From positions 2,369,773 through 2,433,772 of the forward strand of contig OZ241992.1 of assembly GCA_965204445.1 (NCBI GenBank): a DNA stretch of 64,000 bases. Direction: 5' to 3'. Shown one piece after another: positions 2,244-27,853 of this stretch (position 1 is the stretch's first letter; the number at the start of each line of letters is the position of its first letter). The notes below the pieces were generated by a model. That model was not told the origin of the DNA, ran no database searches, and saw only the letters and a list, made by a program, of their open reading frames with translations. A program made the position numbers and the translations under genes. The DNA is from Dehalococcoidia bacterium (GTDB lineage: Bacteria; Chloroflexota; Dehalococcoidia; Lucifugimonadales; JADFKI01).

Positions 2244-2265
2244 GGGCATCTTAATCGGAGGCTAG

Positions 2266-2577
2266 ATGATGACGCAGCAACAGCGCGACAGCAAGCCCGA
2301 ACCGGCGCAAGAGCGCCAAGTTCAGCATTCGATCGGGCCGGAAGCGGCGTTGGCGGCGCTGCGTAGGGCGTCGGACATAGCGCGGCGCAGGGCGCTTGAG
2401 ACTACGGGAGCGGTAGCCATATTCAGGGACGGCGAGATAGTGTATGAGACCGACCCGAATGTACTTTTCAGCGAACCGCAGGAATGGCTCAACGCCTCGT
2501 GCTGCCACACACACCGGCCGAATGCGGCGCATCGCGACGGCGAATCGGATGGCGGCGGCAACGGCAATCCGTCATAA
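2266..2577 (+). CDS. small hypothetical protein
   Basis: 103-aa ORF with GGAGG 6-7 nt upstream of the ATG. No recognisable domain. The C-terminal part may be read-through of low-complexity sequence. Confidence 0.4.
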   Translation: MMTQQQRDSKPEPAQERQVQHSIGPEAALAALRRASDIARRRALETTGAVAIFRDGEIVYETDPNVLFSEPQEWLNASCCHTHRPNAAHRDGESDGGGNGNPS

Positions 2578-2644
2578 CAGCGGTGCCACTAACCCGCATC
2601 ACGCGCAGGATTGGCGTTCATATAACGCCCGGTGTTGCGCCCGC

Positions 2645-3598: not shown

Positions 3599-3642
3599 GT
3601 TTGGGACCTTCTTTCGGGGTGTGATTATTGATGTGCGGGGGA

Positions 3643-3675
3643 TTTTCAACGCAAAGGCGCAGGGGCGCAAAGGGA
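3643..3675 (-). repeat. dispersed intergenic TTGCGCC-triplet repeat, copy a
   Basis: The reverse complement reads CCTTTGCGCCCCTGCGCCTTTGCGTTGAAAA, with three TGCGC/TGCGT cores at 8-bp spacing. It is immediately preceded on the minus strand by TATAAT. Confidence 0.8.
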
Positions 3676-3928
3676 TTATACACGCCGGCGCAACAGCCGC
3701 GACAATTCAACCATAGCGGGATGGCGCGCGGATGCGGCGGACTGCATTCTTTCATACCGCTAGACTAAGCAAGCCCATAGAGCCTCCATCCGGAACAACC
3801 TGAATGATTCACCGCTGCCGCCTTGCCAAGACGCGGCGGCGCTATTCCTGGACAGGGGTTGTTTGCGTTAGGGTTGCCATTTAGCGGAGTTCACCTTTTA
3901 TTTAGTAGATTAGCGGATTTCTCAATGG

Positions 3929-3957
3929 ACTTTGCGCCCCCGCGTCTTTGCGTTAAT
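3929..3957 (+). repeat. dispersed intergenic TTGCGCC-triplet repeat, copy b
   Basis: ACTTTGCGCCCCCGCGTCTTTGCGTTAAT, located downstream of the rpoD stop. Confidence 0.75.
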
Positions 3958-3987
3958 CACTCTCGCTAGGAAGGCGCAACCCCGCCC

Positions 3988-5706: not shown

Positions 5707-5764
5707 CCGCTTAACCCCCGTCCGACTTGTGTATAGATAAGCAATAAGCCCGTTTCGTATATTC

Positions 5765-5813
5765 GCGCGCGCTTGCCGTATGCGCGAATGCGTATGCGCG
5801 CTTGCCGTATGCG
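5765..5813. repeat. 18-bp direct repeat pair between dnaG and rpoD
   Basis: GCGCGCTTGCCGTATGCG occurs at 5767-5784 and 5796-5813, with additional CGTATGCG words between the two copies. Confidence 0.6.
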
Positions 5814-5834
5814 ATGCGTGCGCCGCCGCGCCTA

Positions 5835-7667
5835 CTACGCCGTTTCCGTCGTCTTTATGTCTGCGTTGAGATTGGCGATTTGCGCCGTCAGCTCGCGCGA
5901 TGGCGGCGTGGCGTTGTCCGCCGTCTCAAGCAGCTCTTCCTGCAGCTCCAGCAGATGGCGGCGCTTCAGCCGTTGGATGCACTGATCCAGCGCCCGCTCG
6001 CTCTCGACGCTATCCGTGGGCGCTATGTCCGCCTGCGTCAGCGACTGCATATGCGCCAGCAGCGGCTCGTCGAGCAGCGCCTCAAGTTCATCCGTCGCCG
6101 CGCAGCCCATCCAGCGCTTGAACACCTCCCTGTCCGCGCTCTTGCGAAAGTATTCGGGCGATAGTTCGTGAACGCGCTCGCGCAACTGCGGGCGGCTCAG
6201 CAGCAGCGATAGCGTAAAATCTTCCAACACATCCTCGCGGCTCGCCGTCAGCGCCGACGCGGCGACCTGTTCCCTGCTGTTCGGCTGCGGCTGCGATTGC
6301 CGTGGCGCGCGCCGCCGCGAAGTATATGCCGGGCGGCGCGGCAACCCCGCTTTGAGCGCATCCATCGTAATGCCCAGCGCGTCCGCCAGGTTCTGCAGAT
6401 AGCGCTGCTGATCGAAGATGTTGTGAGTCGCCGCTATCAGCGGAAATACGGCTTCGACCACCTGCGATTTGCCGTGTCCGCTGCTGATGTCGAAGCGCGA
6501 TGTGATTGCCGGTATAAGGTAACTCATAAGCGGCAGCGCGTTCTGCGTCAACCGCTCCCACTCTGCCGCATCGTGGCGTATAAGTTCGTCCGGATCTTTG
6601 CCGTCGGGCAGCGCCGCGATGTTCAAAGTTATCGGATCGCGCCGCTGCAGGACGCCCTGCGATACCCCGCGCGCCGCCGACTGCTCCCCGATTATCTTCC
6701 AAGACGCCTCTAGGCTGCGAAGCGTCGCCTCTTGTCCCGCCGCGTCCGGATCCAGCGCAAGCACGAACTTGTTCGCCAGCGATTTCAGCTGCGCCACCTG
6801 ATTTTCGGTGAGCGCCGTCCCCATAGACGCAACCACATTGCGATAGCCGCGCTGATGCGCCGCGATGACATCCATATAGCCCTCGACGACAATGCCCGTG
6901 TTGGCGCTGCGAATGTGGGAGTGGGCGAGGTGGAGTCCGTAGAGGGTGTTGCGCTTATCGAAAATGGGGGTGCTTGCGGTGTTGATGTACTTAGGGTTGT
7001 AGCCTTGCGATGCAGGCGCGGCGCTGCTCATATCGCGCCCGCCGAAGCCTATCGCATCGCCCTGCCTGTTGTGTATGGGAAACATCAGCCTGCCGCGGAA
7101 GAAGTCCCATGTTCTGCCGGCATCATTGCGATAGATTAGCCCGCTTGCCACCGCTTCATCTTCGTTCACGCCCATATTGGACAGATAAGTCTTCAGCCCG
7201 TCCCAGCCGTCGGGCGCTACGCCGAGTTGGAATGCGTCGATAGCCTCGCCGTTGACGCCGCGCCGCCCTAGATACTGCATCGCCGCCGCGCCCTGCGCCG
7301 ATTTCAGCCTATCCTGATAGAAGGTTGCGGCAAGGCGGTTGACGGCGTGCAACCGACTGCGCTTATCGCTGTCCTGCTTGGCCGTCGGCGATAGCGGAAC
7401 GCCCGCCTTCTGCGCCAGCAATCGCAGCGCATCCCCGAACTCCAAGTTCTGATGGCGCATAACGAAAGAGAAGGCGTCCCCCCCGGTGGAGCATGCGCCG
7501 AAGCAGCGCCAGCTCTGACGCTCCGGGTTCACGATGAACGAAGGCGTCTTTTCGGTATGAAAAGGACAAGGCGCCTTGAAGCTGCGCCCCGCTTTCTGCA
7601 GCGGAACATAGCCCGACACCACATCCACGATGTCAAGACGCGCTCTTATGTCGTCAGCAACGCTCAT
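5835..7667 (-). CDS. dnaG: DNA primase
   Basis: 610 aa. CHC2 zinc finger '[11 protein letters not shown]...CFGC' and TOPRIM motif '[10 protein letters not shown]'. Confidence 0.95.
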
Positions 7668-7694
7668 TGTTCTATCGGTTGTCCGTCCGAATGC

Positions 7695-8105
7695 TTATCG
7701 GCAGCAATCGTCGATCGCGGAATTTCGGGCGCGCATAGGCGGCGCGCCGTCTTGCGCTTGGGCGTAGGCGTACTCCGCAATCCTAGTCAGCGGCTCGCGC
7801 ACGCTCTCCAAGTGCCAAGCGATATGATCTATGGACGCGCGCATATCCACCAGCGAATCGCCTATGGCGTCCCAGTCTCCCGACGTCTTGAGCATATTGT
7901 TCAAACGATCCGTGAACTCTTTCTGAGCCCCCCACAAATCGCCCAAGTCCGTGCCTACGCTTGCCAGTTCGGCGTCAAGCGTAGCCGGCAGCCCCATCTC
8001 GCGCAACAGCACAACGACGCTGTGCGCCATAACCGCCGTGCGCCGCGCATGATTAAGATCGGCTTCCATCTCTACGACCGCTGTCTGTTCGCTGTTCGCT
8101 GTCAA
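7695..8105 (-). CDS. hypothetical protein inside the dgt-dnaG-rpoD cluster
   Basis: 136-aa ORF on the same strand, ending 27 nt before the dnaG start. No domain recognised. Confidence 0.5.
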   Translation of the reverse strand: MTANSEQTAVVEMEADLNHARRTAVMAHSVVVLLREMGLPATLDAELASVGTDLGDLWGAQKEFTDRLNNMLKTSGDWDAIGDSLVDMRASIDHIAWHLESVREPLTRIAEYAYAQAQDGAPPMRARNSAIDDCCR

Positions 8106-8214
8106 CGCCGATCCTTTCCGCCGCTCGCATACTCTACGGACTGATTGCTGAATTGCTCTGAACCGCTAGTAGAGAGAGGGAACATTCCCTATTTTGGAAA
8201 CGCCTTAGCGCCGC

Positions 8215-8481
8215 CTACTGCCTTCCCAGAACCGCATAATGCGACAAATACATCATCCACGGCTCGCGTATCATCTCAAGCGCGGACTGCTGCGGCTCGG
8301 GGCTCATATCGTTTATCTGCTCGAAGGTAGTCTTCCAAATATGGTCGACTTCGCTCTTCCACGGCTCATACTCAAGCCCGTGAGCGTCCCGCTGCATCGC
8401 CTCCAGATGCTCGCGCACCCGCTTAATCTGATGCGAAACGCTGCGCATCAGTATCCTATCGTTGGGCGTCATACCAGCCAT
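8215..8481 (-). CDS. hypothetical protein, translationally coupled to dgt
   Basis: 88-aa ORF. Its ATG overlaps the dgt stop codon as TAATG at 8479-8483, which suggests translational coupling. Confidence 0.55.
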   Translation of the reverse strand: MAGMTPNDRILMRSVSHQIKRVREHLEAMQRDAHGLEYEPWKSEVDHIWKTTFEQINDMSPEPQQSALEMIREPWMMYLSHYAVLGRQ

Positions 8482-9569
8482 TATAGCAGTCTTTCTATGA
8501 AAATCTTAGCGATCCCCGGCTGAATTCTCTCAGCCACGCGCATCGCATACCAATCCGTCATACCCGACACATAGTCCACCACCGCATCCGATTCGCTTCG
8601 GCTGCGACGGGCATAGTCCGACGGGATTTCGTCCCGATGTTCGTTGAAATGGCGATACAGCAGCCGCACAATGCGCCGCGCCGCCTCGCCCTCGGCGCGC
8701 GCGTCCTGCGGCAGATACACATTCCTGAACATATACTCCCGCAGCTCCATAAACGCCTGCCGCACCGCATCGCCCATCCCGATTGCGGGCAAAGCGTCGG
8801 GATGCGCCCCGTTCAACCCGCTCGCCGCATACGAATTCTCTATGATGTCGCACACGATAGTGTCAATGCGCTCGGCATGCCGCCCGCCCAGCGCATTCAG
8901 CGTCCCCGACGGCAGATCCGCGGGCGAAAGAACGCCGGCGCGAAACGCGTCGGCAAGGTCGTGGTTAATGTAGGCTACCGCGTCCGATACGCGCACCACT
9001 TGCGCTTCGAGCGAAAGGCCGTCGTTGTCGACCCCGGCTAGGAAATCGCCGCGCGGCTTGGAGTGCCGCAGTATCCCCTGCCGCACCTCCCAAGTGAGGT
9101 TAAGCCCCCTGCCGTCCTTCTCCACGCGCTCCACGATACGCAGGCTTTGGCGGCTGTGCCGAAACCCGTCCGGATGAAGCTTGTCCAGCTCATCCTCGCC
9201 GATATGCCCGAAAGGCGTATGCCCCAAATCGTGCGCCATAGCGATGGCTTCCGCGAGATCTTCGTTCAAGTTCAGCGCCCGCGCGATAGTGCGCGCTATC
9301 TGCGCCACCTCAAGCGTATGCGTAAGGCGCGTAACATAATGATCGCCAAGCGGCGCGATAAACACCTGCGTCTTATGCTTCAGCCGCCGAAACGCCTTGC
9401 TGTGGATAACGCGGTCGCGGTCGCGCTGATACTCCGTGCGCACATCGGACGGCCGCTCCGGAACTGCGCGCCCGACGCTGCGCCCCGACCTAGCGGCATA
9501 CGGCGAGAGACATTCCTCGCGCTCTTCAAGTCGCCGGCGTATAACCGCCCGCTGTGCCGTCGCATTCAA
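8481..9569 (-). CDS. dgt: dGTP triphosphohydrolase-like HD-domain protein
   Basis: 362 aa. HD motif 'HTLEVAQIAR...AHDLGHTPFGHIGE'. It sits in the conserved position upstream of dnaG. Confidence 0.9.
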   Translation of the reverse strand: MNATAQRAVIRRRLEEREECLSPYAARSGRSVGRAVPERPSDVRTEYQRDRDRVIHSKAFRRLKHKTQVFIAPLGDHYVTRLTHTLEVAQIARTIARALNLNEDLAEAIAMAHDLGHTPFGHIGEDELDKLHPDGFRHSRQSLRIVERVEKDGRGLNLTWEVRQGILRHSKPRGDFLAGVDNDGLSLEAQVVRVSDAVAYINHDLADAFRAGVLSPADLPSGTLNALGGRHAERIDTIVCDIIENSYAASGLNGAHPDALPAIGMGDAVRQAFMELREYMFRNVYLPQDARAEGEAARRIVRLLYRHFNEHRDEIPSDYARRSRSESDAVVDYVSGMTDWYAMRVAERIQPGIAKIFIERLL

Positions 9570-15125: not shown

Positions 15126-16676
15126 TTAGACGCCCAATGCGAGTTCGGGCTGCGGCGGCGTTAGGGTGCGCTCGATCGCAACCTTTCGTTCCCTCTCTAT
15201 TGGCAACCCGCGAACTAGCCCAATCAGCGCTTCGCTTTCTTTCGCGCTGGCAGTCTCACCGACTAGCAGCGCTTGGGTGCGCGTGATACGCCGCCGCGGC
15301 TCATCATCGAGCCATCCGTCCCGCCGATTGGCGCACGAGTCCGCTGATGGTGAGCGTAGCGCCCTTAGCGCCGTTGCAAGGCGAGCAGAGTATAACGCGG
15401 TTATCAATCGTGTTGGCTCCGCCGTCAGCGCGCGGCTGCATATGGTCTAGTTGCATAAATCGGATGTGAAGCTCACGCCCGCATCCCGCGCATACGCCGC
15501 CCTGCGCGGCATAGAGTATATCGCGCATATCGGCGTGGGATAGGCGCATACAGGGTTCGGATTTGCGCTGCCGCCAGTTGATGCTCGGCAGGCTAGCGCC
15601 CACATCGGCTTCGTCGTCGGTTCGCTAGGGGGGTACGGCGTGCGTGTACTGGGAACCAGAGTCGCCGCTGCAGTGTGGTGGCAGCGCCTTCCCACAAGTC
15701 GATGCCTATCCATTGGCGTTTTAGCGCTTCGGCGGCAACCAGGGTCGTGGCGCAGCCGCAGAATGGGTCAAGCACAATATCGCCTTCGTTGCTGCTTGCC
15801 TTGATGATGCGCTTGTACAAGGCAATCGGCTTTTGGGTCGGATAGCCGACTTTCTCATTTTCATTTGTCAGCGCCGATATATCGCTGAAGACATTCGTCA
15901 GCGCCACGCCTTTCGCATCGGATAGGTAGTTCTTGCGGCGGGGGATGCCATTATCATTGAAGTCAAGTAGCCCTTCCCGCTCATACCGCTCCATCGTTTC
16001 GCGCAGGAAGCGCCATTGGCGCGTGATGCCGTGAAACTCATAGACCATATTCGGGCAGTCGGCGTTGTTTTGGCGCGATGTCAGCATATAGCGCCCGCGC
16101 TCGTCTTCGTGGCGATATTGCGCGAGTTGAGCGTCCGTGATGGGCGCGTGAAGCCGATTGAAAGTCCAGTCTTTGCCTTTGGAGTACTGCAGGATGTTTT
16201 CGTAAGCCCGCCGCCACTTTCGGCGGGACAGGTTCTCAGCGGCGCGATGCCAGATGATTTCATTCTGGAAATTCGCCGCCCCGAACACGCTATCAAGCAG
16301 CGCCTTGATGTAGTGGGATGCCGTAGGGTCGCAATGCAGATACAGCGAACCCGTCGGTTTCAAAACCCGCCGCATCTCTATCACCCGCACGCCCAACCAG
16401 CACAGAAAAGCCGCCAAGTCGTCGCGCTTCTGCGTCCGCACCAGGTCGATCAACTCATAGAGCGCGGGCTGGTCGTCCTTAATGCTGTCAACCCAATCGG
16501 GATGGACGTCCTTTTCCCAACTCCAGCGGCGCCCCTGCCGCAAGGTTATCGGGCGTGGCGTGAAAGTCCCGCCCCTTGTTGAACGGCGGGTCGGTGGCGA
16601 TGAGGTCAACGCTTTCGGAGTTCATCCCGCGCAGTACGTCTAGGTTATCGTGTATGTACAGGGTTCGGTTATCCAT
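15126..16676 (-). pseudogene. decayed DNA methyltransferase (N4/N6 beta-class)-HNH endonuclease fusion
   Basis: The gene is split over at least three frames. ORF 16488-16676 has 'DLIATDPPF'. ORF 15593-16609 has 'LKPTGSLYLHCD' and 'IVLDPFCGCATT'. ORF 15304-15603 has the HNH motif 'LDHMQPRADGG...ILCSPCNGAKG'. ORF 15126-15407 carries the tail. Single-nt frameshifts lie near 16525 and 15330. It is collinear with the intact paralogue at 21776-23590. Confidence 0.85.
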
Positions 16677-16701
16677 TATTGCGCCCTTCCCATTTGTCGG
16701 A

Positions 16702-17561
16702 TTACAGCGCTGCTACATCTTCCCAACTTGTGAATGGCCGCTCTACGCCCGCGGCTTCAGCCGGCCGCTTACCCTTCAGGCTTTCGTGGGGTCGGAAATA
16801 GTTGTAGTGCGTAACTAACCGGGCAACATAGGCTTGCCCGGTCTCCCGCGATTTTAAGCCTCTCAGCGTTTTATCCCTGTCCCGTATCGTTCCCTGAAGC
16901 CGCTCGCTCAGGTTGTTGTTGATTTCTGCCCGAATGCCTTTGCTGACGACGTGTTCAACCTTGTGAGTTGGAAACGCCTGCGGCATTGCGCGGCGGTAGG
17001 AAGGCAACCTGTCGGTTTTGATTTGTTCGGGCAGGCTTTGCGCCCGTTCACGCGCAAGCGCCAACGCCGTCGCCGCGGCGCGCGTTGTGCGCTCAGGGGA
17101 CAGGTATGCCGCCAGTAGGAAACGGCTATCGGAGTCCATCACATTGAAAAGCCAATAGTTCGTTCCTCCGACATTAACCACTACTTCATCGGCAACCCAA
17201 CGTCGCCTGTGGCAACCTTCATCGGCTTGAGCGCCGAGTCCGCCTTTGCGGTCAACTCGCGAACCCATTGGTAAATGCTGACTTGCGTAGTTTCCCGCCC
17301 AAAATACTGCTTCATATTTTGCGCCGCCTTGCGATAGGACACGCCGTCAAAGTACATATCCACCGCGGCGCCCTTTTCGTGGGGAGTGGCATGTCGGCGT
17401 TGTCCGTCCGTCGGCTTTATGGGCTTGCCGCGGTCGTCAAGTTGGACAAACCGAACCGTGCCAGATGAACGGCAGGTTTGGCAAGATTGCCCAGTTTTGC
17501 GCTTGCAGTTCGCCCCGCATAGATGCCCCATTGCGGTATTATATGCTAAACTACCCAGCAA
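16702..17561 (-). pseudogene. IS6-like DDE transposase interrupted by one frameshift
   Basis: The N-terminal zinc-finger/HTH part (ORF 17181-17561) ends '...KVATGD'. The DDE core (ORF 16702-17268) continues 'RWVADEVVVNVGG...KTDRLPSY...NNNLSERLQG' in the -1 frame. No slippery heptamer is present, so inactivation is more likely than recoding. Confidence 0.75.
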
Positions 17562-17582
17562 ATGTAACAGAGCCCTCGAAAC

Positions 17583-18418
17583 GGTATTCTTAGTGGTGAG
17601 TGGTATTGAGTTTGAGCTTGGCGCAGAAGACTAGCGCAAGCAGACTCACCAGCATCTCCACGCTCTTTGCGCAGCCTTTGTCCGACGAACTAACCGATTC
17701 AACTTCCCGCGCAGCATCGAATGCAATCCTTCATTCCAGTTCACCGTCCCGTACCTCCCAACCACATGCTTGTTGACCGGCAGCGCCCCGTACATTCCGT
17801 ATGCGTCGGTCTCGTAGCGCTCCGCATCCGGCAGACGCTCCAGCAACCGCAAGAAAGTGGCTTCGTCCCTGCCCCCCACCTCAAAGTCTATCCACCTGCT
17901 CACGTCGCGCTCTTCCACCACCGCTGTCCACACCCACAGATCGTTGCGCTTTTCTTCTCTTCTAGCGCCCAAGTATGTCCACATTTCGTCAAGCGCTATC
18001 GTCAACGCAGCGATTGTCGCAGCCCGCCCGCTTGCGCGCCACGCGCTTATTGCGCGCATCCGTTCAAGCGCTATCGCCCCCCTTTTTTGACCCAGCCACT
18101 CACCGATGCAGCGCTTGCGCCCACTACGCGCGCCGCCGCCGATATGCTCGCGCCCTCTATGCGCATCTGAACCGCCTGCCGCCTGGTCTGCTCCGGGAAG
18201 CGCGGCCGCGCTGCGTCCGCCGTGTACTTCCGCTTGCAATCCCCGCACTTGTACACTTGCCTGCCGCGTGTGTGTCCGTCTTTGGGCATCCAATTGGAGC
18301 CGCAGTGGCGGCATCTAACATCGTGTCGATATGACCGCTCGCGCGCCATTAGATCGCATCCTAGATAGTAGTGGTCTGAGTGCCATTATATCTAATGCCA
18401 CTCGATTTTGTGAATACC
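17583..18418. mobile_element. IS1-family insertion sequence
   Basis: Imperfect terminal inverted repeats: GGTATTCTTAGTGGTGAGTGGTATT (17583-17607) against the reverse complement of 18394-18418, GGTATTCACAAAATCGAGTGGCATT (17/25). The internal gene organisation is InsA/InsB-like. Confidence 0.75.
17646..18349 (-). CDS. IS1-family transposase InsAB' (InsA 18071-18349; fusion by -1 frameshift)
   Basis: InsA-like zinc finger 'CRHCGSNWMPKDG...YKCGDCKRKY' plus an HTH. The slippery motif TCAAAAAAGGG (T-run at 18083-18088 on the plus strand) lies exactly where the -1 frame 'KRGAIALERMR...DEMWTY...' opens. Confidence 0.8.
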
Positions 18419-18881: not shown

Positions 18882-19325
18882 CTACGCATCGCCTCTATCG
18901 TCTTCGTCGCTCAGTATGCGCGCAAGCTCAGGGGTAAGGTTGCCGCTCTGCTCGAGTTGCGCGCGTATGCGCATGCGCTCTTCAGCGCGCCCTTTGGCTT
19001 GACCCTCTTCGATGCCCTGTGCGCGTCCCTTTTGCTCTGCCTTCTTTTCAACGGCTTCTTTTGCTGCGAAAATCAATTTTGCGCCTCCGTAAAGCACGGT
19101 TGTTGTGGGGAATAGCAGCAACGTCGCCAGTATAATGACGCCGGCTTCCTGTTCTGTCAAACTCTTGAGCAGACGAATGCACCACAGATCAGCACAGACG
19201 TTGCCGCATCCGTTTATCAGCACTGCTACCAGCATACTGGCGCTGATTGCCGATGAGCCGTCAAAGAAGCGCCACAAGGTTCGGTTGTCTCCCATAGCAA
19301 CGCCACCGTAGGTTTCGCTTGCCAT
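18882..19325 (-). CDS. hypothetical small membrane protein
   Basis: 147 aa with two hydrophobic segments and a charged Lys/Glu/Arg-rich C-terminus. It lies downstream of the NHL gene on the same strand. Confidence 0.55.
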   Translation of the reverse strand: MASETYGGVAMGDNRTLWRFFDGSSAISASMLVAVLINGCGNVCADLWCIRLLKSLTEQEAGVIILATLLLFPTTTVLYGGAKLIFAAKEAVEKKAEQKGRAQGIEEGQAKGRAEERMRIRAQLEQSGNLTPELARILSDEDDRGDA

Positions 19326-19395: not shown

Positions 19396-20430
19396 TTACA
19401 GGTTGAACTGGGGCTCCATGTAGTCGTTCACCTTGTTGTATATCTGCAAGCGCCCGCGCTGCGTGTCTGCGACCAATAGGCGAGACTTGGCGGCGTCGAA
19501 GGTTACGGCTGTGGGCATTGCGAAGCGCCATTCGGGTTCGAGCGTGTACACGCGGCGGCGCGCCTTAATTACATCCACGTTGGCGTCCACCTGCTCTTGG
19601 TGCCACTTGGCGAGCTGCTGCGCGTCCCCGACGAGGCTGGCGAGGAATCTGCCGTCTGCAGCGAATACCTGCACGCGGTCGTTGCCCCAATCGCATACAT
19701 ACACATCGCCGTCCGGGTCGACCGCGACGTCGCTGGGGCGGTTGAGTTGTCCCCTGCCTTTGCCGTATTTGCCGAATGCCGCGACGAAATCGCCGTCTGC
19801 GTCAAATTTCTGGACGCGGTGATTCTTGTGGTCGGCGACATATACGCAGTCGTCGGCGTCGCAGGCGATGCCCCACGGGGCGTTGAATTCGCCTTCGTCC
19901 GATCCGAATCCTCCGAACTGCGATATGTACTCGCCGTCCCTGTTGAACTTCTGGACGCGGTGGTTCAGGCTGTCCACAACATAGACGTCGTCGTTGGAGT
20001 CGAGCGCGATGCCAGAAGGGCGGTTCAGCTCGCCATCGCCGTCGCCGGCTGTGCCCCATACGCCAAGCAGTTCGCCGTCCTTGTCGAATACGCTGACGCG
20101 GTTCATCCACTCGTCGGTGATGTACAGGTTTTCGTCGGAGTCGAGCGCAAGCCCGGCGGGCCATATGAGCTCGCCCTCTGCGTCGCCGTACTTGCTTATG
20201 CGGCCGAGGAACTCTTCGTCGTACGGCGCGGTTGGCACGGTGAACTTGTTGAGCTGGGCTGCGGTGGCGGTCTTGTTCCAGGGGACATCCAGTATCTGTT
20301 CGTACTGGCGGCTCAGCACATAGACCATATCGCCTTCGCCCACGGCGACATTTATCGGCTGGGGCATGTACAGCCCCCCGACGGCGTGGCTGAAATCAAA
20401 GGTGCGGCCTGCCGCTACGGTGGTCAGCAT
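19396..20430 (-). CDS. NHL-repeat beta-propeller protein (copy 1)
   Basis: About six repeats of 'G.F..P.GIA.D....VYV.D..N.RVQ.F'. The start is set at the internal ATG 20430 ('MLTTVAAGR'), preceded by GAGAGAGG. The longer ORF would run into the upstream gene. Confidence 0.85.
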   Translation of the reverse strand: MLTTVAAGRTFDFSHAVGGLYMPQPINVAVGEGDMVYVLSRQYEQILDVPWNKTATAAQLNKFTVPTAPYDEEFLGRISKYGDAEGELIWPAGLALDSDENLYITDEWMNRVSVFDKDGELLGVWGTAGDGDGELNRPSGIALDSNDDVYVVDSLNHRVQKFNRDGEYISQFGGFGSDEGEFNAPWGIACDADDCVYVADHKNHRVQKFDADGDFVAAFGKYGKGRGQLNRPSDVAVDPDGDVYVCDWGNDRVQVFAADGRFLASLVGDAQQLAKWHQEQVDANVDVIKARRRVYTLEPEWRFAMPTAVTFDAAKSRLLVADTQRGRLQIYNKVNDYMEPQFNL

Positions 20431-20551
20431 AGTTTTGCCTCTCTCTGTGCATGATTGGGTATGTATAGGCGGCGGGTTCGGCAATTCTGTCGAACGCCAG
20501 CGCTGCCCCCGCCGAGATTGTCGGAAGCGGCGGGGACAGAAAGGCTTTCGG

Positions 20552-21685
20552 TTAGTTTGCGATGAAGCCAACCTTCTCGAAGTCGCCGCCCACGATGGGC
20601 TTTGCGTCCATCTTCATCCAGTCTTCCACGATGGTGGAATAGACGCTGCGAAAGTCTAGGGAAGGCACAACATCGCCCTGCTCTAGGTCTTCAGCGCGCA
20701 GGGACGGGTAGTCGTTGTACTGCCCGCCGTTGACCTGGTCGCCTATGACAAGCACAGCCCCCGCCGCGCCGTGGTCGGTGCCGGAGCCGTTGTCGTGCGT
20801 GCGCCTGCCGAACTCGGAGAACAGCAGCATTATGACGTTGTCGGAGGCGTCGTGCGCGCGCAGGTCGTCGAAGAAGTCGTTGACGGCGGTGGAGAGGTCG
20901 TCCCACAGCGCCGAAAGCATATTGGGCTGGCCGGCGTGCGAGTCGAAGCTTCCGTGGTCGCAGTAGAACACGCGCGTTCCCAAATCCGCCATATGCACCT
21001 GCGCTATGCCCTTGAGCTTCTTGGCGAGCGTGGTGTCGGCGTACTCCACATCGGAGGAGTAGCGTTCCGGCGCAACCTTCAGGATGTCCGCGCCCTGCAG
21101 GGCGTCCAAACCCGTCTGTCCGAGAAATTCCATCACCGGGCCTCTGCCGATTGCCTGTCCGTATAGGCGCGAGAAGCGGTTCAGTATCTTTTGGCGCTGC
21201 TCTTCGGCGCTGATGCCGGGCATCAAGCCGTAGTTGTTCAGGTCTTCCACGCACGCCACCGGCACGCCCGGCACCGCCATAGCGCGGAACATGCTGGGGC
21301 CGAAGCTTACGCCGGTTACCACATTCTCTTTGCGCGGGTCGATCTCTTGGATGACCTTGCCGAGCCAGCCCTCTGTGCCTACGTCGTCCGGCTCGCAGGT
21401 GTGCCAGATGTCCATAGAGCGAAAGTGAGAGCGCGGCGAGTTTTCGTAGCCCACGCCGTTGATGATGGCGACGTTGCCCTGATTGTACATATCGCGGATT
21501 GCGCCCATCTGCGGATGCAGCCCTATCTTGTCGTCAAGGTGAAGCACCTGCTCTTGGGGAATGCCGACCGTGGGGCGGTTGTCGTAGTAGAGTTCGTCGT
21601 TGTACGGGATGACGGTGTTGAGATAGTCGTTGCCGCCCGAAAGCTGAACAACAACCACAACCGGATCTTTCTGCGCGGTGGTCAT
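20552..21685 (-). CDS. DUF1501-family (sulfatase/phosphatase-fold) protein (copy 1)
   Basis: 'VVVQLSGGNDYLN', 'RSHFRSMDIWHT' and 'FSEFGRRTHDNGSGTDHG' are DUF1501 hallmarks. No Tat or signal peptide is visible. GGAAGGAG RBS. Confidence 0.8.
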   Translation of the reverse strand: MTTAQKDPVVVVVQLSGGNDYLNTVIPYNDELYYDNRPTVGIPQEQVLHLDDKIGLHPQMGAIRDMYNQGNVAIINGVGYENSPRSHFRSMDIWHTCEPDDVGTEGWLGKVIQEIDPRKENVVTGVSFGPSMFRAMAVPGVPVACVEDLNNYGLMPGISAEEQRQKILNRFSRLYGQAIGRGPVMEFLGQTGLDALQGADILKVAPERYSSDVEYADTTLAKKLKGIAQVHMADLGTRVFYCDHGSFDSHAGQPNMLSALWDDLSTAVNDFFDDLRAHDASDNVIMLLFSEFGRRTHDNGSGTDHGAAGAVLVIGDQVNGGQYNDYPSLRAEDLEQGDVVPSLDFRSVYSTIVEDWMKMDAKPIVGGDFEKVGFIAN

Positions 21686-21775
21686 TTTGCTGCTCCTTCC
21701 CAGTTTTAATTTTTGGTGTATCTATCGGATGTAGAAATCGGATTGGCGTTTGATTGATTGCGTTGAAAGCGCGGC

Positions 21776-23590
21776 TTAATCGTCCATGGATGGCTGATAG
21801 CCGCGTCGAAACAGGTAGTCCATATGAAAGCGATGCGCTCGGTCTTCCATCTCCGCCAAATCAACAAGCGCGCCCATCGTGTCGACCAGCATTTCGCCGG
21901 CGTCCGCTATCTGAACGCGGTAGTCGGCGAGGTGGATGCGCTGATTGCCTTTGCGGATGTTGTGCGTGGGGCAGAGCGGCGCGCGGTTCCATATCTGATT
22001 GGAGCCGCGCTTGGACTTAGGATCCACATGGTCAAGATGGAAGTTGTTGGTAGTTTCCACAATGCTGCCGTCCGGGCGGCGGTTGGCGAAGCCGCAGCAC
22101 CACGCCATATAGCCCGACCACTCCAACAGCGTTTCAAGCATTGCCGCATTTGGAATATCGCTTGCCGGCACTTTGAACTCGCGCTCCGGCAATGCGAACT
22201 CTTTCGGGGCGGCGTCGACGATGGGCGTTGCGCGGACGGGCAATTCGTCGGGGCCGTGAACGGTTACCGTCTTGTCTTTGGTGAGCGCCGCCTGTCCGGT
22301 AACTTCGTCTTCGCAGTCGAGAACGATGAGCCGGGGCTTGTTGAACTGGCGCTTGAACACCGTCCACGCGCGCGGGTTGAAGTCGCACGCCACCCAGCGG
22401 CGGTTGAGGCGCTCGGCGGCGACGCCAGCGTATGCGCAGCCCGCAAAGCAGTCTAGCACTACATCGCCTTCATTCGTGCTTGCCTGGATGATGCGTTCCG
22501 CAAGCGCAACAGGCTTTTGCGTGGGGTAGCCGGTGCGCTCTATCGCGCGCGAACCAACCGGCTTTATATCGTCCCACAGGTTGCCCGGAACCTGCCCAAG
22601 GTTTGCGTCCAAGTAGCGCTTTAAGCCGGGCACGCCCCCCTCTTCCGGATGATGAATCAATCCCGCCGCATCCAGTGCGTCAAGTCTCGCTATTACCCCT
22701 TGGATGCTCTTGTATCCCGGGATTACATTAGCCTCTATCCAATCGGCGTAGTTCCCGGTTAGAGGGATTGCCCAGTGGCGTCCACTTCGCGCCGGAATAT
22801 GACCTTTCCACGGCTGCCCGCTTTCACCTCGCGACGTCTCTGCGCCGGTTAAATCGCCTACTCGATACCTGCCGCGCTCATCTTGGTAGCGATAGAACCT
22901 TCTGACATATTCCTCGCTCAGCGGCACCCTAACTGCGTCCGTGTTTATATTATCCTTGCCGCTGTAGAATTGTATGAAGTCTATGACGTTGCCAAATCGC
23001 CGCGCGTCGTTGTGGGCGGATGTGCGCCGCCACACGATTTTGTCGCGAGATTTGTCCTCGCCAAAGATAGCGTCCAGCAGCAAATGCAGATATGAGTCCG
23101 CGGTATGATCGCAGTGCAGATACAGGCTGCCGGTCGGCTTCAGAACCCTGTGAATTTCAATCAGCCGAATAGCCATGTAGCACAAGTACGCCGCCATGCC
23201 GTCGCTGTGGACAATCCGAGTTGCGTCTATCAGGCTGTATATGGCGGGATAGTCCGTTTCTAGGCTTTCGACCCAGTCTTCGTGAATGTCCGCTTCCCAG
23301 GACCATATATCGGTGTAGCCGCCGCGCGTTATGCCTTCCGGCCAAGTTAGCCCCTTGGCGTCGGCTTCTTGGGCGGTGTTTATGCCCCAGCTTGAGAGCA
23401 GACGCCGCTCTATCGCCAGCTCCGAATCGGTGAGCGGGGGCCTTATCCTATCACCAGTGAAAGTTTCGTTCTTGGCAAACGGCGGGTCGATGCACACAAG
23501 GTCGATGCACTCGTCGTTGAGCGCGCGCAGAAACGCTAGGTTGTCTGCGATATAGACGCCTCTGTTGACTGCATTGAAAGCGTTGGGCAT
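21776..23590 (-). CDS. DNA methyltransferase (N4/N6, beta-class)-HNH endonuclease fusion, intact
   Basis: 604 aa. Motif IV 'DLVCIDPPF', 'LKPTGSLYLHCD', motif I 'VVLDCFAGCAYAGVAA' and C-terminal HNH 'HLDHVDPKSKRGSNQIWNRAPLCPTHNIRKGN'. Confidence 0.85.
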   Translation of the reverse strand: MPNAFNAVNRGVYIADNLAFLRALNDECIDLVCIDPPFAKNETFTGDRIRPPLTDSELAIERRLLSSWGINTAQEADAKGLTWPEGITRGGYTDIWSWEADIHEDWVESLETDYPAIYSLIDATRIVHSDGMAAYLCYMAIRLIEIHRVLKPTGSLYLHCDHTADSYLHLLLDAIFGEDKSRDKIVWRRTSAHNDARRFGNVIDFIQFYSGKDNINTDAVRVPLSEEYVRRFYRYQDERGRYRVGDLTGAETSRGESGQPWKGHIPARSGRHWAIPLTGNYADWIEANVIPGYKSIQGVIARLDALDAAGLIHHPEEGGVPGLKRYLDANLGQVPGNLWDDIKPVGSRAIERTGYPTQKPVALAERIIQASTNEGDVVLDCFAGCAYAGVAAERLNRRWVACDFNPRAWTVFKRQFNKPRLIVLDCEDEVTGQAALTKDKTVTVHGPDELPVRATPIVDAAPKEFALPEREFKVPASDIPNAAMLETLLEWSGYMAWCCGFANRRPDGSIVETTNNFHLDHVDPKSKRGSNQIWNRAPLCPTHNIRKGNQRIHLADYRVQIADAGEMLVDTMGALVDLAEMEDRAHRFHMDYLFRRGYQPSMDD

Positions 23591-23699
23591 TGCCGTTGTC
23601 TCTGTAAGATAAGTTGGCTTGCAGGGAAGTTCTTGCGCTATCCAATCATAGGAATAGCCGAGAACTCCCCCGCAAGTGTCCGTCTAGTGCGCCGCGGCG

Positions 23700-25097
23700 C
23701 TATGCGTACTGATAGTCCCGGAGCGATACGATGAGCTGCAGCATTTCGCTGATCCGCATCGCGGCGAAGTCGGCATCGCCCCAAGTCAGGCTGCAGTCTA
23801 TGGCGGCGTGGTCTATAAGTTCCTGGCGCGTCTTGGGGTCGAGGTCGAGGGGACCCATCAGGTCGAGGCAGGTGTCCACGAACTCGTCGGGCGCAAGCTC
23901 GCCGGCGTCCTGGACTTTGCCCACGATTGTCTGCACGCCCGGCAGCGAGGTGTCGCCCACCAGGTCGGCCACGAAGTTGATGCGGCGCATAAGCGAGCCG
24001 CTGTTGATCCACTCGCGCCCGGTGTGCCAGCCCTCTACACTGGGCGGGTTCAGCACTTCCTGCCCCATGTATCCCATCTGCCTGCCGAGGTTGCCGATGC
24101 CGGGCGCGGGGAATTCGTGTCCGCCCACGAAGCGCAGCGTGTTGACCACAACCTCGACCGGGCTCTTGATGCGGGTGAAGCGCGCCTCTTTGAAGAAGTC
24201 GGAGTTGAACAGCACGCGCAGCACGGAGCGCATATCGTATTCGGACTCCACGAAGGCGTCCGCGAGCGTCTGAATGGCGTCGGGATCGCCGGGCGCGACG
24301 CGCTGCCATGCGGGCACCTGCGCTTCGTCCGCTACGAAGAAGTTGTACAGGTGGCGCGCCACGAAGCGCGATGTGGCGGGCTGACTGCAGATGATGTCTA
24401 TGATGTCTTCGCCGTTGAAGTTGCCCGTGTAGCCGAGGAACGACTTTTCGCCTTCGTCGTGGTCGTCGTCGCGGTACTCGAACGACCAGTCGAAGCGTCC
24501 CATCGGAAAGCGCGGGAGCTTAGGCGTAATCGTCCAGCCGGTAAAGGCGCGCGAACACTCGAACACATCGGTTTCGGTGTAGTTGCCCACGCCCATGCTG
24601 AACAGCTCCAGCAGTTCGCGGCCCCAGTTTTCGTTGGGCGCGTCGGCGTGATTTTCGTTGTTGTCGAGCCAGTAGATCATCGCGGGGTTTTGGGCGACTT
24701 CCATCAGTATTCGCTTGTAGCTGCCCATGCCCTTTTCGCGCAGCATGTCCACCATATCCAGGATTTCGTCCCAGTGGTCGACCTTGGATACGCCGGTGGC
24801 GAATATGCCGTGCCAGAAGATAGCCATCTTTTCTTGGAGCGGCGCTTTGGTGTTGACCATATGGTAAAGCCAAGTGGCGTGGCCGGTGCCTTGTATGGTG
24901 CCGGGCTTCCACGACCACGGGTGATAGCGCAGAAGCTCATACCTGTCGACCGGGGGCTGCGCTTCGGGGTTCAGCAGTTCCTCTACGGTGGCTTCGTAGC
25001 CATTGGCGACGTACGCCTCCAGTTCGTCGTGCGTCGCTCCGAATCCGGCGCGGCGCATCAGGTGCGCCATCAGCGCAATGTCATCTCGGTGGGACAT
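23700..25097 (-). CDS. DUF1800-family protein (copy 1)
   Basis: 'LMRRAGFGAT' and 'MAIFWHGIFATG' are DUF1800 hallmarks. The ATG at 25097 lies 7 nt after AGGAGG. Confidence 0.8.
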   Translation of the reverse strand: MSHRDDIALMAHLMRRAGFGATHDELEAYVANGYEATVEELLNPEAQPPVDRYELLRYHPWSWKPGTIQGTGHATWLYHMVNTKAPLQEKMAIFWHGIFATGVSKVDHWDEILDMVDMLREKGMGSYKRILMEVAQNPAMIYWLDNNENHADAPNENWGRELLELFSMGVGNYTETDVFECSRAFTGWTITPKLPRFPMGRFDWSFEYRDDDHDEGEKSFLGYTGNFNGEDIIDIICSQPATSRFVARHLYNFFVADEAQVPAWQRVAPGDPDAIQTLADAFVESEYDMRSVLRVLFNSDFFKEARFTRIKSPVEVVVNTLRFVGGHEFPAPGIGNLGRQMGYMGQEVLNPPSVEGWHTGREWINSGSLMRRINFVADLVGDTSLPGVQTIVGKVQDAGELAPDEFVDTCLDLMGPLDLDPKTRQELIDHAAIDCSLTWGDADFAAMRISEMLQLIVSLRDYQYA

Positions 25098-25395
25098 CAA
25101 TCTGCCTCCTATCTCTATCGTTCACGCCCAATCCAGGGCAGCCTCAGTAGCATATACCACCTAGCGATATGCCCGATATAATCAGCAAATCGCCGGCACA
25201 GAATTAGCCGAATCGTATTTTGTCAAGTATATGAACCAGCGGCGTCTATGTCAAACGCCTCAGCGGGCGCAAAGCGGGGCGGTTTTCGGCGAACCAAACG
25301 GCGGGCCGCTGTCTCAATTATGGCAGATTAGCGGCGCAGATCGACGCAGTTAGTAAGCGCGCGGAAGCGGCGTCCGTTAGAGGGGATGAACGCAA

Positions 25396-25492: not shown

Positions 25493-27853
25493 TTAGTTAG
25501 AGACGCTTGTCGTAGAGATGTCTAGCGTCAGCATGAAATTGCCGACGGTTTCGATGTGGTAGGTGGTAGCCTCTATGGTGTAGCTGCCCGCCTGCAGTTG
25601 CTCGGTTATTCGAGAGTCGCCCCGGTTGACGATGGAGCCGGAGTTGCCTACGCCCTCTAGCAGGTAGAGGTAGGTGTCCGCCACATCGTCGGACGAGATG
25701 CTGACGGTTACGCTTGACGCGGCCTCAAGCGTGAATGTGTAGAAGCGCGCATAGCGGGTTCCCGCTTTTGCGGTTGCGGGCGTCTTATCCGATAGGCAAT
25801 CGGCGTTCCATGTGCCGGTTAGCCAACCCAATCCGGTCTTGCGAATGCAGCCGGGCGCCAATGTCGACGCTGATGCGCGCGTGGGAGTTGCCGTAGGAAT
25901 GGTCGTAGACGTCGCCGTGGGCGTGGTTTCCAGCACGGTTACCGGCGTATTCGTCGGCGTGGGCGTATGGGTTGGCGTTGCCGTCGGGATGGTTCCTCCA
26001 AGTTCCGCCACTCTATCGGTCAGTGCATCGACGAGCCCGCGCAACGATTCGATAAGCCTATTCAGCGTTCCCATATCTTGGAACGTTCCCGCCCGGTCGC
26101 GCAACGCCCCGACTTGCTCTTCAAACTCGTCTAGCCCACCGCCTATGGGCGTGGACACGCCGGTTGCGGTTGGCGTGAGCGTAGGGGCGAGTTCGTCCGT
26201 GATGACCGTGCTCGTAGGCGTTGGGATAGATTCGCTTGTGGACGAAACGCTTGTGGACGTGGGCGTATGAGTTGCCGTTGCTGTGGGCGCAGGTTCGTCT
26301 GTTGCCGAAACACTCGTGGAAGTCGGCGTAAGCGTGGGTTCGCCTGTGGCTGAAACGCTCGTTGCCGTGGGCGTGTGAGTCGGTGTTGAAGTTGTTGTGG
26401 GAGCAGGCGTTGACGATCCGCTCACACCGAATAGGTGTACCGTTACATAGATTACGTCCGTACCCAATTGGTCATCTGCATCGTTGGTTACTCGGACTTC
26501 CACCCTATGGAAGGGTCTCGACCATGTATTCAGCCTGGCATCTACGGACAGAACGCCCGAAGAAGAAATGGCGAACACGCGCGGCTCGCCTATAGCGGCG
26601 CGGAGCCTAAACTTAATGGCGTCTCCGTCCGGATCGCAGGCATCGAAATCCTCCAACACCGTGCGCGTTAGCGAATCTCCGTCTATCCAATAAACCGGAT
26701 CTCTTCCTCTAGAGAAGGTAGTGCGTGGTCGGGCTGTGGCGCAGTCTGTGTCATCATAGACGAAGTAAGGCGGACTGTTGACAAGCGTGGGCGTATGAGT
26801 AGGCTCAGGCGTAGGCGTAAGAGTTGGGATTGGCGTTTCTATGGGCGCAGATGTGGCCGGCGGCGTTGACTCGCCAAATTGGTTTTTGCCCCAGCATACT
26901 ACAGCGCCATCCGCGCGAAGACCGCACTTATGGCTCCCGCCACCGCTTATGGATGCGAAGGTTTCACCCGCAGGCGGCGTTGTTTGACCATAATCGTTAA
27001 GCCCCCAGCATACTGCGACTCCGTCATTTCGCAATCCGCAAGTATGCCGAGCGCCGGCGCTTATAGACGCGAAGGTTTCACCCGCAGGCGGCGTTGACTG
27101 ACCGAATCCGTCATAACCCCAACATACCGCAGCGCCATCCGCGCGAAGACCGCAGGCATGACGATGTCCGGCGCTTATGGATGCGAAGGTTTCATCCGCA
27201 GGAGGCGTTGACTGACCGAACCTGTTATCGCCCCAGCATACTGCGGCGCCGTCATTTCGCAGTCCGCAGGTATAAGACGTATTAGCGCTTATAGACGCGA
27301 ATGCGCCCGCAGGAGGCGTTGCCTCGCCATGTATGTTACGCCCTCCCCAGCATACTGCCGCGCCATCCGCGCGAAGACCGCAAGTATGAGAGTAACCGAC
27401 ACTTGCAACGCTTGCAACGCTTATAGACGCGAATGCGCCCGTAGGGGACGTTGGAGGCGCTGACCTATTGTACTTGGCATCACCCCAGCACACTGCCGCA
27501 CCATCCGCGCGAATACCGCAGGCGTGGCGGAATCCAGTGCTAATAGATGTGAAGACACCTGACGGCGGAGAAATCTGATCATGCGCGTTAAGTCCCCAGC
27601 ATACTGCAGCGCCATCCGTGCGAATACCGCAGGTGAGACCGTCTCCGGCGCTTACGGCGCTGAATGTCATTGCGCGCGGTGTGCTTGTGGATGTGGGCGT
27701 GTTGTCGACGCCCTGCTGCGCGCTTGCGTCGTCCGCATTTGCGAGCAGGGTGAACAGCAGCAACGCCACCACTGTGAGGGCGGTGAGGAAGTAGAGCGCG
27801 GATTTAGAACCTATGAACGGGGGGGGGGGGGGGGTAAATCGTATGTTCGGCAT
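25493..27853 (-). CDS. secreted RCC1-repeat protein with beta-sandwich (cadherin-like) domain, Thr/Pro linkers and C-terminal PPC-like domain
   Basis: 786 aa. Signal/TM segment 'ALYFLTALTVVALLLFTLLANA'. About seven repeats of 'H.CGLRADGAAVCWG.N.FGQSTPP'. T/P/S-rich linkers. The C-terminus 'YARFYTFTLEAASSVTVSISSDD..TYLYLL' is pre-peptidase-C-terminal-like. Confidence 0.8.
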   Translation of the reverse strand: MPNIRFTPPPPPFIGSKSALYFLTALTVVALLLFTLLANADDASAQQGVDNTPTSTSTPRAMTFSAVSAGDGLTCGIRTDGAAVCWGLNAHDQISPPSGVFTSISTGFRHACGIRADGAAVCWGDAKYNRSAPPTSPTGAFASISVASVASVGYSHTCGLRADGAAVCWGGRNIHGEATPPAGAFASISANTSYTCGLRNDGAAVCWGDNRFGQSTPPADETFASISAGHRHACGLRADGAAVCWGYDGFGQSTPPAGETFASISAGARHTCGLRNDGVAVCWGLNDYGQTTPPAGETFASISGGGSHKCGLRADGAVVCWGKNQFGESTPPATSAPIETPIPTLTPTPEPTHTPTLVNSPPYFVYDDTDCATARPRTTFSRGRDPVYWIDGDSLTRTVLEDFDACDPDGDAIKFRLRAAIGEPRVFAISSSGVLSVDARLNTWSRPFHRVEVRVTNDADDQLGTDVIYVTVHLFGVSGSSTPAPTTTSTPTHTPTATSVSATGEPTLTPTSTSVSATDEPAPTATATHTPTSTSVSSTSESIPTPTSTVITDELAPTLTPTATGVSTPIGGGLDEFEEQVGALRDRAGTFQDMGTLNRLIESLRGLVDALTDRVAELGGTIPTATPTHTPTPTNTPVTVLETTPTATSTTIPTATPTRASASTLAPGCIRKTGLGWLTGTWNADCLSDKTPATAKAGTRYARFYTFTLEAASSVTVSISSDDVADTYLYLLEGVGNSGSIVNRGDSRITEQLQAGSYTIEATTYHIETVGNFMLTLDISTTSVSN
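26850..27670 (-). repeat. about 114-120-bp tandem coding repeats (RCC1 blades)
   Basis: The recurrent DNA words GCGCCATCCGCGCGAAGACCGCA and CCCCAGCATACTGC are seen six to seven times. Confidence 0.8.
27819..27834 (-). repeat. 16-nt homopolymer (poly-C on the coding strand) in codons 7-12 of the RCC1-repeat gene
   Basis: The plus strand carries G16. It encodes 'TPPPPPF' between the ATG and the signal peptide. Confidence 0.95.

Follow-up and report, generated by a model that had tools for sequence, protein, structure and literature searches.

The 64,000-nucleotide window analysed here (positions 2,369,773–2,433,772 of contig OZ241992.1, from the genome of a sponge-associated Dehalococcoidia bacterium) carries two copies of a gene module encoding a DUF1800 protein, a DUF1501 protein and an NHL beta-propeller. 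We propose, with about an even chance of being right, that this module encodes a cytoplasmic three-subunit metalloenzyme in which DUF1501 is the catalyst and DUF1800 and NHL form a specificity pair, the paralogues differing in specificity and the whole being tied to metal or redox state. DUF1501 would be the catalytic subunit, using S86 as nucleophile and D20, D248, H250, D304 and H305 as metal ligands to hydrolyse or transfer phosphoryl, sulfuryl or similar groups. DUF1800 and NHL would act as an obligate 1:1 pair that recognises a substrate or partner and sets specificity; pairs without a DUF1501 of their own could use one encoded elsewhere, and different paralogues would have different specificities. 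At least one sister module, the nearest to copy 1, is very probably under a Fur/Irr-like repressor of its own, with an operator resembling the iron control element (ICE), which would link the family to metal (iron/haem) or oxidative state.

Both copies are intact on the minus strand, and open reading frames (ORFs) and Pfam profiles bear out the order and orientation given for them by a sequence-only reading of this DNA. Copy 1 comprises DUF1800 (23700–25097; 465 amino acids from an ATG start, isoelectric point (pI) 4.7, PF08811 E 6e-102), DUF1501 (20552–21685; 377 amino acids, PF07394 E 6e-23), for which a fold of the alkaline-phosphatase superfamily is predicted, and the NHL propeller (19396–20430; 344 amino acids, pI 4.5, PF01436 E 7e-40). 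Copy 2 comprises DUF1800 (52158–53558; 466 amino acids, PF08811 E 3e-96), DUF1501 (50984–52120; 378 amino acids, PF07394 E 8e-26), which retains all of the invariant candidate active-site residues described below, and an NHL propeller of the 'MSRPYGLLR' subfamily (49907–50935; 342 amino acids, PF01436 E 5e-36), with intergenic gaps of 37 and 48 nt. The paralogues align along their full length and contain every motif quoted in that reading; identities of only 48% for DUF1800 (E 5e-151), 50% for DUF1501 (2e-143) and 42% for NHL (3e-70) mark the duplication as old. The description of copy 1 as a three-gene module holds for the set of genes and not for their contiguity, as a 604-amino-acid methyltransferase-HNH gene separates DUF1800 from DUF1501. 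None of the six window proteins has a signal peptide. In particular, neither DUF1501 has a twin-arginine (Tat) or Sec signal, as had been noted from the sequence; each begins 8–10 residues ahead of the first conserved strand (MTTAQKDPVVVVVQLSGGND), and the 'RRAGF' of DUF1800 is the conserved start of its domain, with no hydrophobic stretch behind it.

The attachment of the NHL gene to this pair is conserved well beyond the source genome. Species-representative genomes were searched with an alignment of the NHL paralogues and 80 loci were kept, of which 55 have the order DUF1800-DUF1501-NHL on one strand and 13 have DUF1800-NHL; a further seven are variants or contig-end cuts with a partner gene, and the last five have no upstream DNA. 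A partner DUF1800 and/or DUF1501 therefore adjoins NHL in all 75 loci with upstream DNA, and the module spans at least four phyla. Hosts are mainly metagenome-assembled genomes (MAGs) of Dehalococcoidia and other Chloroflexota, many sponge-derived, together with Candidatus Entotheonella, several Alphaproteobacteria (including Rhizobium sp., Rhodopila sp. and Hyphomicrobiaceae) and a Nitrospinota MAG that carries two trios in tandem. The trio proteins are leaderless in these last three groups as well: no RR motif or export signal was found in the seven DUF1501 paralogues of the source genome or in DUF1501 from other phyla, which start 8–12 residues before the first conserved strand. Median gaps among the loci are 72, 98 and 73 nt, and one locus combines a 10-nt gap with a 1-nt overlap.

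No conserved flanking genes were found, even among congeneric species with a single copy, and about 100 loci yielded neither a fourth gene nor a transporter of general occurrence; in its behaviour the trio is a self-contained cassette. In 12 loci (L010, L011, L012, L014, L028, L032, L036, L038, L039, L048, L067 and L070), a conserved protein of 106–129 amino acids is encoded directly downstream of NHL. It has no Pfam or NCBIfam match, carries the motifs N-P-x-(I/M/L)-L-C, R-A-C and (D-x-)K-x-F-F-S, is absent from the source genome, and may be a fourth component in some lineages. On an 8-Mb contig of Candidatus Entotheonella (L001), two modules stand side by side at 500–9100, one arranged as NHL-DUF1501 behind a DUF1800 fragment and the other in standard order, with HigB/HTH and RHH/PIN toxin–antitoxin pairs between them.

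Copy numbers of the three families move together. Across 41 relatives of the source genome, which hold 361 DUF1800, 367 NHL and 246 DUF1501 genes, all three families are present in the same 35 genomes and absent from the same six; copy numbers correlate at r = 0.99 for DUF1800 and NHL, and at 0.96–0.97 for DUF1501 with each of them. Orthologous modules are stable in every species of the genus. Among 250 genomes sampled evenly across the phylum, a full-length module-type NHL occurred in only eight other genomes, and in all eight loci (one per genome) DUF1501 lay directly upstream of it, which was not so for generic NHL proteins.

The source genome (3.22 Mb, two contigs) encodes 10 DUF1800, 10 module-type NHL and seven DUF1501 proteins, so the earlier count of two modules in 35 kb is correct for the window and falls short as a total, the genome having about ten such modules. 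The DUF1800-DUF1501-NHL arrangement occurs at 1048k, 1097k and 2420k, and with the methyltransferase insertion at 2390k, which is window copy 1. DUF1800-NHL stands alone at 47k, 2703k and 3013k, whereas at 1346k and 1529k one or two unrelated genes separate it from a DUF1501; a DUF1800 at 15k, a DUF1501 at 917k and an NHL at 1908k are orphans. Given these DUF1800-NHL arrangements without an adjacent DUF1501, the tight pair is DUF1800-NHL, at 1:1, with DUF1501 in only about two thirds of modules (about 0.65 per pair). The same paralogue groups (1048k with 2390k; 1097k with 2420k; 47k with 2703k and 3013k) recur in the identity matrices of all three families, with a Mantel r of 0.78 for DUF1800 against NHL (p = 2e-4) and of 0.71 and 0.64 for the comparisons with DUF1501 (p about 0.015). 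Because the matrices agree, the genes have been duplicated as modules and have then diverged together. NHL is the most diverged component (32–62% identity among paralogues, against 43–68% for DUF1800 and 49–67% for DUF1501). All 27 paralogues are very acidic (pI 4.4–5.1, net charge -10 to -31), which argues against nucleic-acid binding. Public sponge-metagenome contigs matched to copy 1 place the organism in several sponge data sets, where its contigs are fragmented by paralogy.

Turning to the individual proteins, DUF1501 gives the clearest indication of chemistry. The window proteins score 82 and 92 bits against PF07394 (gathering threshold 27), modest scores that mark them as a diverged subfamily; a sequence search of the PDB with DUF1501 found no relative, and NCBIfam has no model for DUF1501 or DUF1800. 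The AlphaFold2 model of copy 1 (predicted local distance difference test (pLDDT) 81, predicted template-modelling score (pTM) 0.85) gave 124 PDB matches in Foldseek at E <= 1e-3, and the top matches listed all belong to the alkaline-phosphatase superfamily: LtaS, type I sulfatases, YejM/PbgA, EptC and alkaline phosphatases, at probability 1.0, template-modelling (TM) scores of 0.35–0.47 and about 9–10% identity. The formylglycine motif of type I sulfatases, (C/S)-x-P-x-R, is absent from all DUF1501 paralogues, the local sequence being N-S-P-R-S-H-F-R.

In the alkaline-phosphatase superfamily, a first metal-binding Asp is followed along the sequence by the Ser/Thr nucleophile, then by a D..H pair and finally by a D-H pair. 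Invariant among 30 diverse DUF1501 sequences are D20 (in GGND after strand 1), R85-S86-H87-F88-R89, D92, H95, D248-x-H250, E291, R294, R295 and D304-H305 (in GTDHG). Within this set, D20, S86, D248, H250, D304 and H305 stand in the expected sequence order (D20 after strand 1, S86 after strand 2, then D-x-H and D-H), an assignment based on motif order; pLDDT in the S86 loop is below 50. Because the order of invariant residues fits that of the superfamily, we infer that DUF1501 is an active enzyme, a metallo-hydrolase or transferase that uses serine as its nucleophile. The metal-ligand analysis suggested for this protein accordingly yields invariant candidate Asp and His ligands, placed by sequence order and not by geometry.

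DUF1800 offers no such precedent. The two window proteins score 342 and 323 bits over almost the whole of PF08811 (gathering threshold 26.1), in a family of 19,318 clusters at 50% identity (E <= 1e-3), and a sequence search of the PDB found no relative. The confident AlphaFold2 model of copy 1 (pLDDT 87, pTM 0.89) comprises about 25 helices and a small sheet and matched no PDB fold (best E 1.8, TM at most 0.15); on this model, DUF1800 would have a new helical fold. Its similarity to PSD1 is not significant (E 0.27, 11 bits against a cut-off of 28.5). A likeness to the phycobiliprotein ApcE has been claimed for DUF1800 (PMC12981691); it was unsupported by the fold search, in which a phycobilisome chain appeared only at E 6.8. 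The invariant polar residues of DUF1800 are H12, E89, K90, D145, N155-E156-N157, R160, E161, H213, D214 and E355.

The copy 1 NHL protein, for which the start at 20430 is consistent with homologues, has five clear NHL blades and a degenerate N-terminal blade. Three to four repeats pass PF01436 individually, five D-x-x-N-x-R-[VI]-Q blades are seen in the alignment, and the best PDB relatives are six-bladed. The sequence-only reading had described a cytoplasmic-looking six-bladed propeller; the lack of a signal peptide agrees with this, and the blade count stands as five clear blades plus the degenerate one. Against the PDB, the NHL profile matched designed Pizza proteins, TRIM71, Thin, Brat, TRIM2/3 and the PknD sensor at E 1e-101 to 1e-37, and one catalytic NHL enzyme, peptidylglycine amidating lyase (PAL), at E 5e-20. 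In its sequence the protein therefore appears to resemble binding-type propellers. Its conserved positions are structural repeat residues, among which no catalytic set stands out; catalytic propeller families match weakly (SGL, lactonase and Vgb_lyase, the last at 35–37 bits against a cut-off of 50), and the only NCBIfam likeness is to ScyF, far below cut-off. A non-repeat insert between blades 5 and 6 (19525–19647, minus strand; approximately residues 262–302 of copy 1) contains the block GDA..L(A/S)KW...N...AR in 12 of 12 aligned members. It differs in length between subfamilies, is possibly helical, and is a hallmark of this NHL subfamily. Profile and structure searches placed none of DUF1800, DUF1501 and NHL in a characterised enzyme family, so their earlier non-assignment stands.

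A possible connection to metal or oxidative status comes from regulation of the sister module. The 1048k trio, the paralogue nearest to window copy 1, is preceded by a Fur-family gene (contig 1, 1047537–1048025; 163 amino acids) that lies 92 nt before DUF1800 on the same strand. The protein was found as one weak match when alphaproteobacterial Irr was searched against the source genome; it matches Pfam FUR at E 2e-21 and falls below every NCBIfam cut-off (PerR best, at 99 against 180 bits; Irr at 43–46 bits). An orthologue is present in 25 of the 41 relatives and lies upstream of DUF1800-DUF1501 at all 23 relatives' loci that could be checked on contigs, some of them from two further genera and from a second family within the order.

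Located 135 nt upstream of the Fur-family start is a perfect 7-1-7 inverted repeat, TTAGAATCATTCTAA (TTAGAAT-N-ATTCTAA; contig 1, 1047402–1047416), of which the source genome has no other exact copy. All 16 orthologous upstream regions retain this putative operator with no more than two changes, amid diverged surroundings; it follows a conserved TTGACA-17-TA..T.ACA promoter at a distance of about 10 nt, just beyond the -10 element. Regulator gene and box persist throughout the genus and in two further lineages. The core of the Irr-bound ICE is 5'-TTTAGAA-N3-TTCTAAA-3' (PMC1698941), and TTAGAATCATTCTAA contains the ICE core TTAGAA-N3-TTCTAA. As both regulator gene and box are conserved, and the box matches the ICE core just after the -10 element, the 1048k orthologue group is very probably repressed by its own Fur/Irr-like sensor; the uniqueness of TTAGAATCATTCTAA in the genome makes it appear that this regulator controls only its own operon. 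An irr gene also adjoins the trio in five alphaproteobacterial loci, after NHL in four and before DUF1800 in one, and encodes NCBIfam IrrA (208 bits against a cut-off of 150).

Among the ten DUF1800 genes of the source genome, Fur, PerR or Zur boxes were found upstream only at the one with the Fur gene. Upstream of copy 1, about 125 nt before DUF1800, a promoter-like TTGACA-17-TATACT (25226–25254, minus strand; 11 of 12 consensus positions) reads GTTTGACA-N17-TTCATATACT and is kept in two orthologous regions (L007 and L008) with diverged flanks; this conserved promoter of sigma-70 type is all that copy 1 has. For one paralogue group the tie to metal or oxidative status is solid; for the other copies it is an extrapolation.

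Several observations weigh against the proposed enzyme. Neither window copy has a Fur gene or a TTAGAATCATTCTAA-type box, and a scan found no ICE sites upstream of DUF1800 at the alphaproteobacterial trios. The case for a three-subunit complex is indirect, and no fusion proteins occur among the best 150 DUF1800 representatives. The active-site assignment in DUF1501 follows sequence motifs through a poorly modelled S86 loop, and DUF1800 could itself be catalytic or ligand-binding, given its many invariant polar residues. Finally, no consistently linked pathway or transporter gene was found, and the substrate class is thus not narrowed.

The methyltransferase-HNH gene of copy 1 (21776–23590, minus strand; 604 amino acids, PF01555 E 1e-33, with weak HNH matches) is not part of the module. 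It encodes an N6/N4 DNA methyltransferase fused to an HNH nuclease, which PADLOC classes as a type II methyltransferase, and its insert occupies the entire DUF1800-DUF1501 spacer, 21686–23700. DNA homology between copy 1 and two orthologous loci (L008 and L043) ends at 23701, the DUF1800 stop codon, and restarts at 21685, the DUF1501 start; both loci have a spacer of about 100 nt at this point, that is, an empty site. Because the site is empty in two relatives and homology ends at the gene borders, the gene is a later, selfish-looking insertion that interrupts the module and is not a component of it. In another locus of the same genus (L007), a methyltransferase-HNH gene sits in the same place with a protein only 66% identical to that of copy 1, whereas DUF1800 and DUF1501 on either side of it show 90% and 94% identity. 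Related methyltransferase loci number 27 in the source genome; at least 14 encode the full methyltransferase-HNH fusion, with identities of about 31–58%, and two further fusions adjoin module remnants on contig 1 (DUF1800 at 15 kb, DUF1501 at 917 kb). Three such genes in or beside DUF1800/DUF1501 modules are more than chance would be expected to give. Elsewhere on contig 1, unrelated genes lie between DUF1501 and a DUF1800-NHL pair at 1346829–1348419 (encoding 380 and 139 amino acids) and at 1531592–1533117 (117 and 352 amino acids); the junction beside DUF1501 seems to tolerate or attract insertions.

Around copy 1, a 147-amino-acid ORF with no family match follows NHL directly (18882–19325, minus strand) and contains a promoter-like TTGACA-17-CATTAT site at 19160–19132. 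Further downstream are a second N6/N4 DNA methyltransferase (15593–16609) and two transposase fragments (DDE/rve, 16702–17268; IS1-like, 17646–18314), which together suggest that the region 15593–18314 is disturbed. The upstream neighbour (25493–27853, minus strand) encodes 786 amino acids with seven RCC1 repeats and a weak PPC domain.

Among other explanations, the best survivor is that each protein is an enzyme in its own right within a short catabolic pathway of the cytoplasm, for example with NHL catalysing a lactonase- or lyase-like step, DUF1501 an ester hydrolysis and DUF1800 a further step, expanded in SAR202-type bacteria for the degradation of many related compounds of dissolved organic matter or sponge origin. 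The 10–17 copies per genome parallel other catabolic paralogue families of SAR202, and the three corresponding families from the clusters of orthologous groups (COGs) are among the 50 most abundant there (PMC6946804). Frequent neighbours are glucose–methanol–choline (GMC) oxidoreductases, flavin mononucleotide (FMN) monooxygenases, short-chain dehydrogenases/reductases (SDRs), CoA-transferases and peptide-type ABC transporter parts; these genes are common in these genomes, none is consistently adjacent, and, like the isochorismatases and class-III aminotransferases that also recur, they are lineage-local. The weak Pfam matches of NHL to SGL, lactonase and Vgb-lyase propellers also point this way, but its conserved residues are structural and its closest PDB relatives bind. 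The strict 1:1 pairing of DUF1800 with NHL, along with the congruence of their paralogue trees, suits physical partners better than consecutive enzymes, and a dedicated Fur/Irr-like regulator would be unusual for a carbon-catabolic operon. We regard this pathway as unlikely.

Still less probable is a non-enzymatic role, in which very acidic, abundant cytoplasmic proteins serve as a scaffold for storage or mineralisation, binding, buffering or depositing metal cations under a metal-sensing switch. The acidity of all 27 paralogues and the linkage to a Fur/Irr-type regulator are compatible with it, as is the abundance of DUF1800 in an arsenic/barium-mineralising vesicle fraction of Entotheonella, where two DUF1800 proteins are among the 15 most abundant (PMC12981691); that abundance also shows that the DUF1800 family is expressed. 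Yet acidic proteomes are common in marine bacteria, making charge weak evidence; the vesicle list includes generally abundant proteins such as DnaK, ATP synthase and solute-binding proteins (PMC12981691); and DUF1501 retains the full invariant nucleophile and ligand set typical of active enzymes of its superfamily. A defence or mobile-element system with an NHL sensor and a nuclease- or phosphodiesterase-like DUF1501 effector, to which the methyltransferase-HNH genes in copy 1 and beside two module remnants, the toxin–antitoxin pairs between the Entotheonella modules and the insertion-sequence fragments downstream of copy 1 might point, is highly improbable, as PADLOC has no match for DUF1800 or DUF1501 and one weak repeat-level match for NHL (E 4e-5), vertical inheritance with orthologues stable across the species of the genus and 1:1 copy ratios is unlike patchy defence islands, the methyltransferase-HNH gene of copy 1 is a later insertion, and three strongly acidic proteins are ill-suited to nucleic-acid binding.

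A bolder form of the three-subunit metalloenzyme is that it represents an unrecognised class, with interchangeable DUF1800-NHL pairs docking on an alkaline-phosphatase-type DUF1501 catalyst and acting, under Fur/Irr-like control, in an iron, haem, metallophore or other metal-dependent process; we put this forward tentatively, as a doubtful extension. If true, one of the large paralogue expansions in SAR202 and sponge symbionts would concern metal economy and not carbon catabolism, and DUF1800 would represent a new protein fold. For this very large family no structure has been solved and no function is known, and the model matches no fold in the PDB. In SAR202-type Chloroflexota, which abound in the deep ocean and in sponges, the leaderless trio ranks with the most expanded gene sets (10–17 copies in genomes of 2.4–4.6 Mb); it extends to Entotheonella, Nitrospinota and soil Alphaproteobacteria. 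As a compact system of three soluble proteins with no export step, one group of which has a putative dedicated repressor and a 15-bp operator, it makes these two long-standing domains of unknown function experimentally tractable.

Compared with known systems, DUF1501 shares its core fold and the order of its conserved residues with the alkaline-phosphatase superfamily (LtaS, type I sulfatases, EptC/YejM, alkaline phosphatases and nucleotide pyrophosphatases/phosphodiesterases (NPP)), and differs in having no cap or membrane domains, no formylglycine motif and no PDB relative by sequence. The putative operator resembles Irr/ICE and Fur/PerR 7-1-7 boxes in holding the ICE core and in sitting just after the -10 element, as repressor sites do; unlike Irr, the Chloroflexota regulator scores below the Irr cut-offs and its operator is unique in the genome. 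In the Planctomycetes–Verrucomicrobia–Chlamydiae (PVC) superphylum, DUF1501 modules occur with PSCyt1, PSCyt2 and PSD1, the largest form carrying a PSCyt1-WD40 propeller (Kamneva et al. 2012, PMC3542564). Common to both are DUF1501 with an obligate, non-enzymatic-looking partner, sometimes a beta-propeller, and a many-fold expansion per genome, whereas the PVC modules are exported, bear cytochrome-c motifs (no CxxCH motif occurs in any module paralogue here) and have a WD40 propeller instead of an NHL one.

Closer to the present organism, the Joint Genome Institute (JGI) names of NHL homologues correspond to COG3391, and COG5267 to DUF1800. COG4102 is DUF1501 (PMC6329079). For SAR202, a list of the 50 most abundant COGs includes COG3391, COG4102 and COG5267 together, as correlated 'uncharacterized conserved proteins' (Saw et al. 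2020, mBio, PMC6946804). Families and type of organism both coincide with those studied here, and the correlation is matched by the r = 0.96–0.99 of our 41 relatives; that report stops at the correlation of copy numbers and describes neither an operon or gene order nor spread across phyla, folds, localisation or a regulator. The view that the association with NHL belongs to no described pathway holds, although the co-expansion in SAR202 had already been recorded in one sentence (PMC6946804). We found no paper on the three-gene operon, its leaderless nature, its cross-phylum spread, its folds or its regulator. The nearest relative is the canonical DUF1800-DUF1501 pair of Proteobacteria and other phyla (PF08811/PF07394; COG5267/COG4102), described as an operon that is uncharacterised, as the sequence-only reading also had it, and usually Tat-exported (PMC5122149), with a twin-arginine export signal on canonical DUF1501 (PMC5122149, PMC3542564). 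The module described here has the same families in the same order in one operon; unlike the canonical pair, all three of its proteins are leaderless and an NHL propeller gene is always attached.

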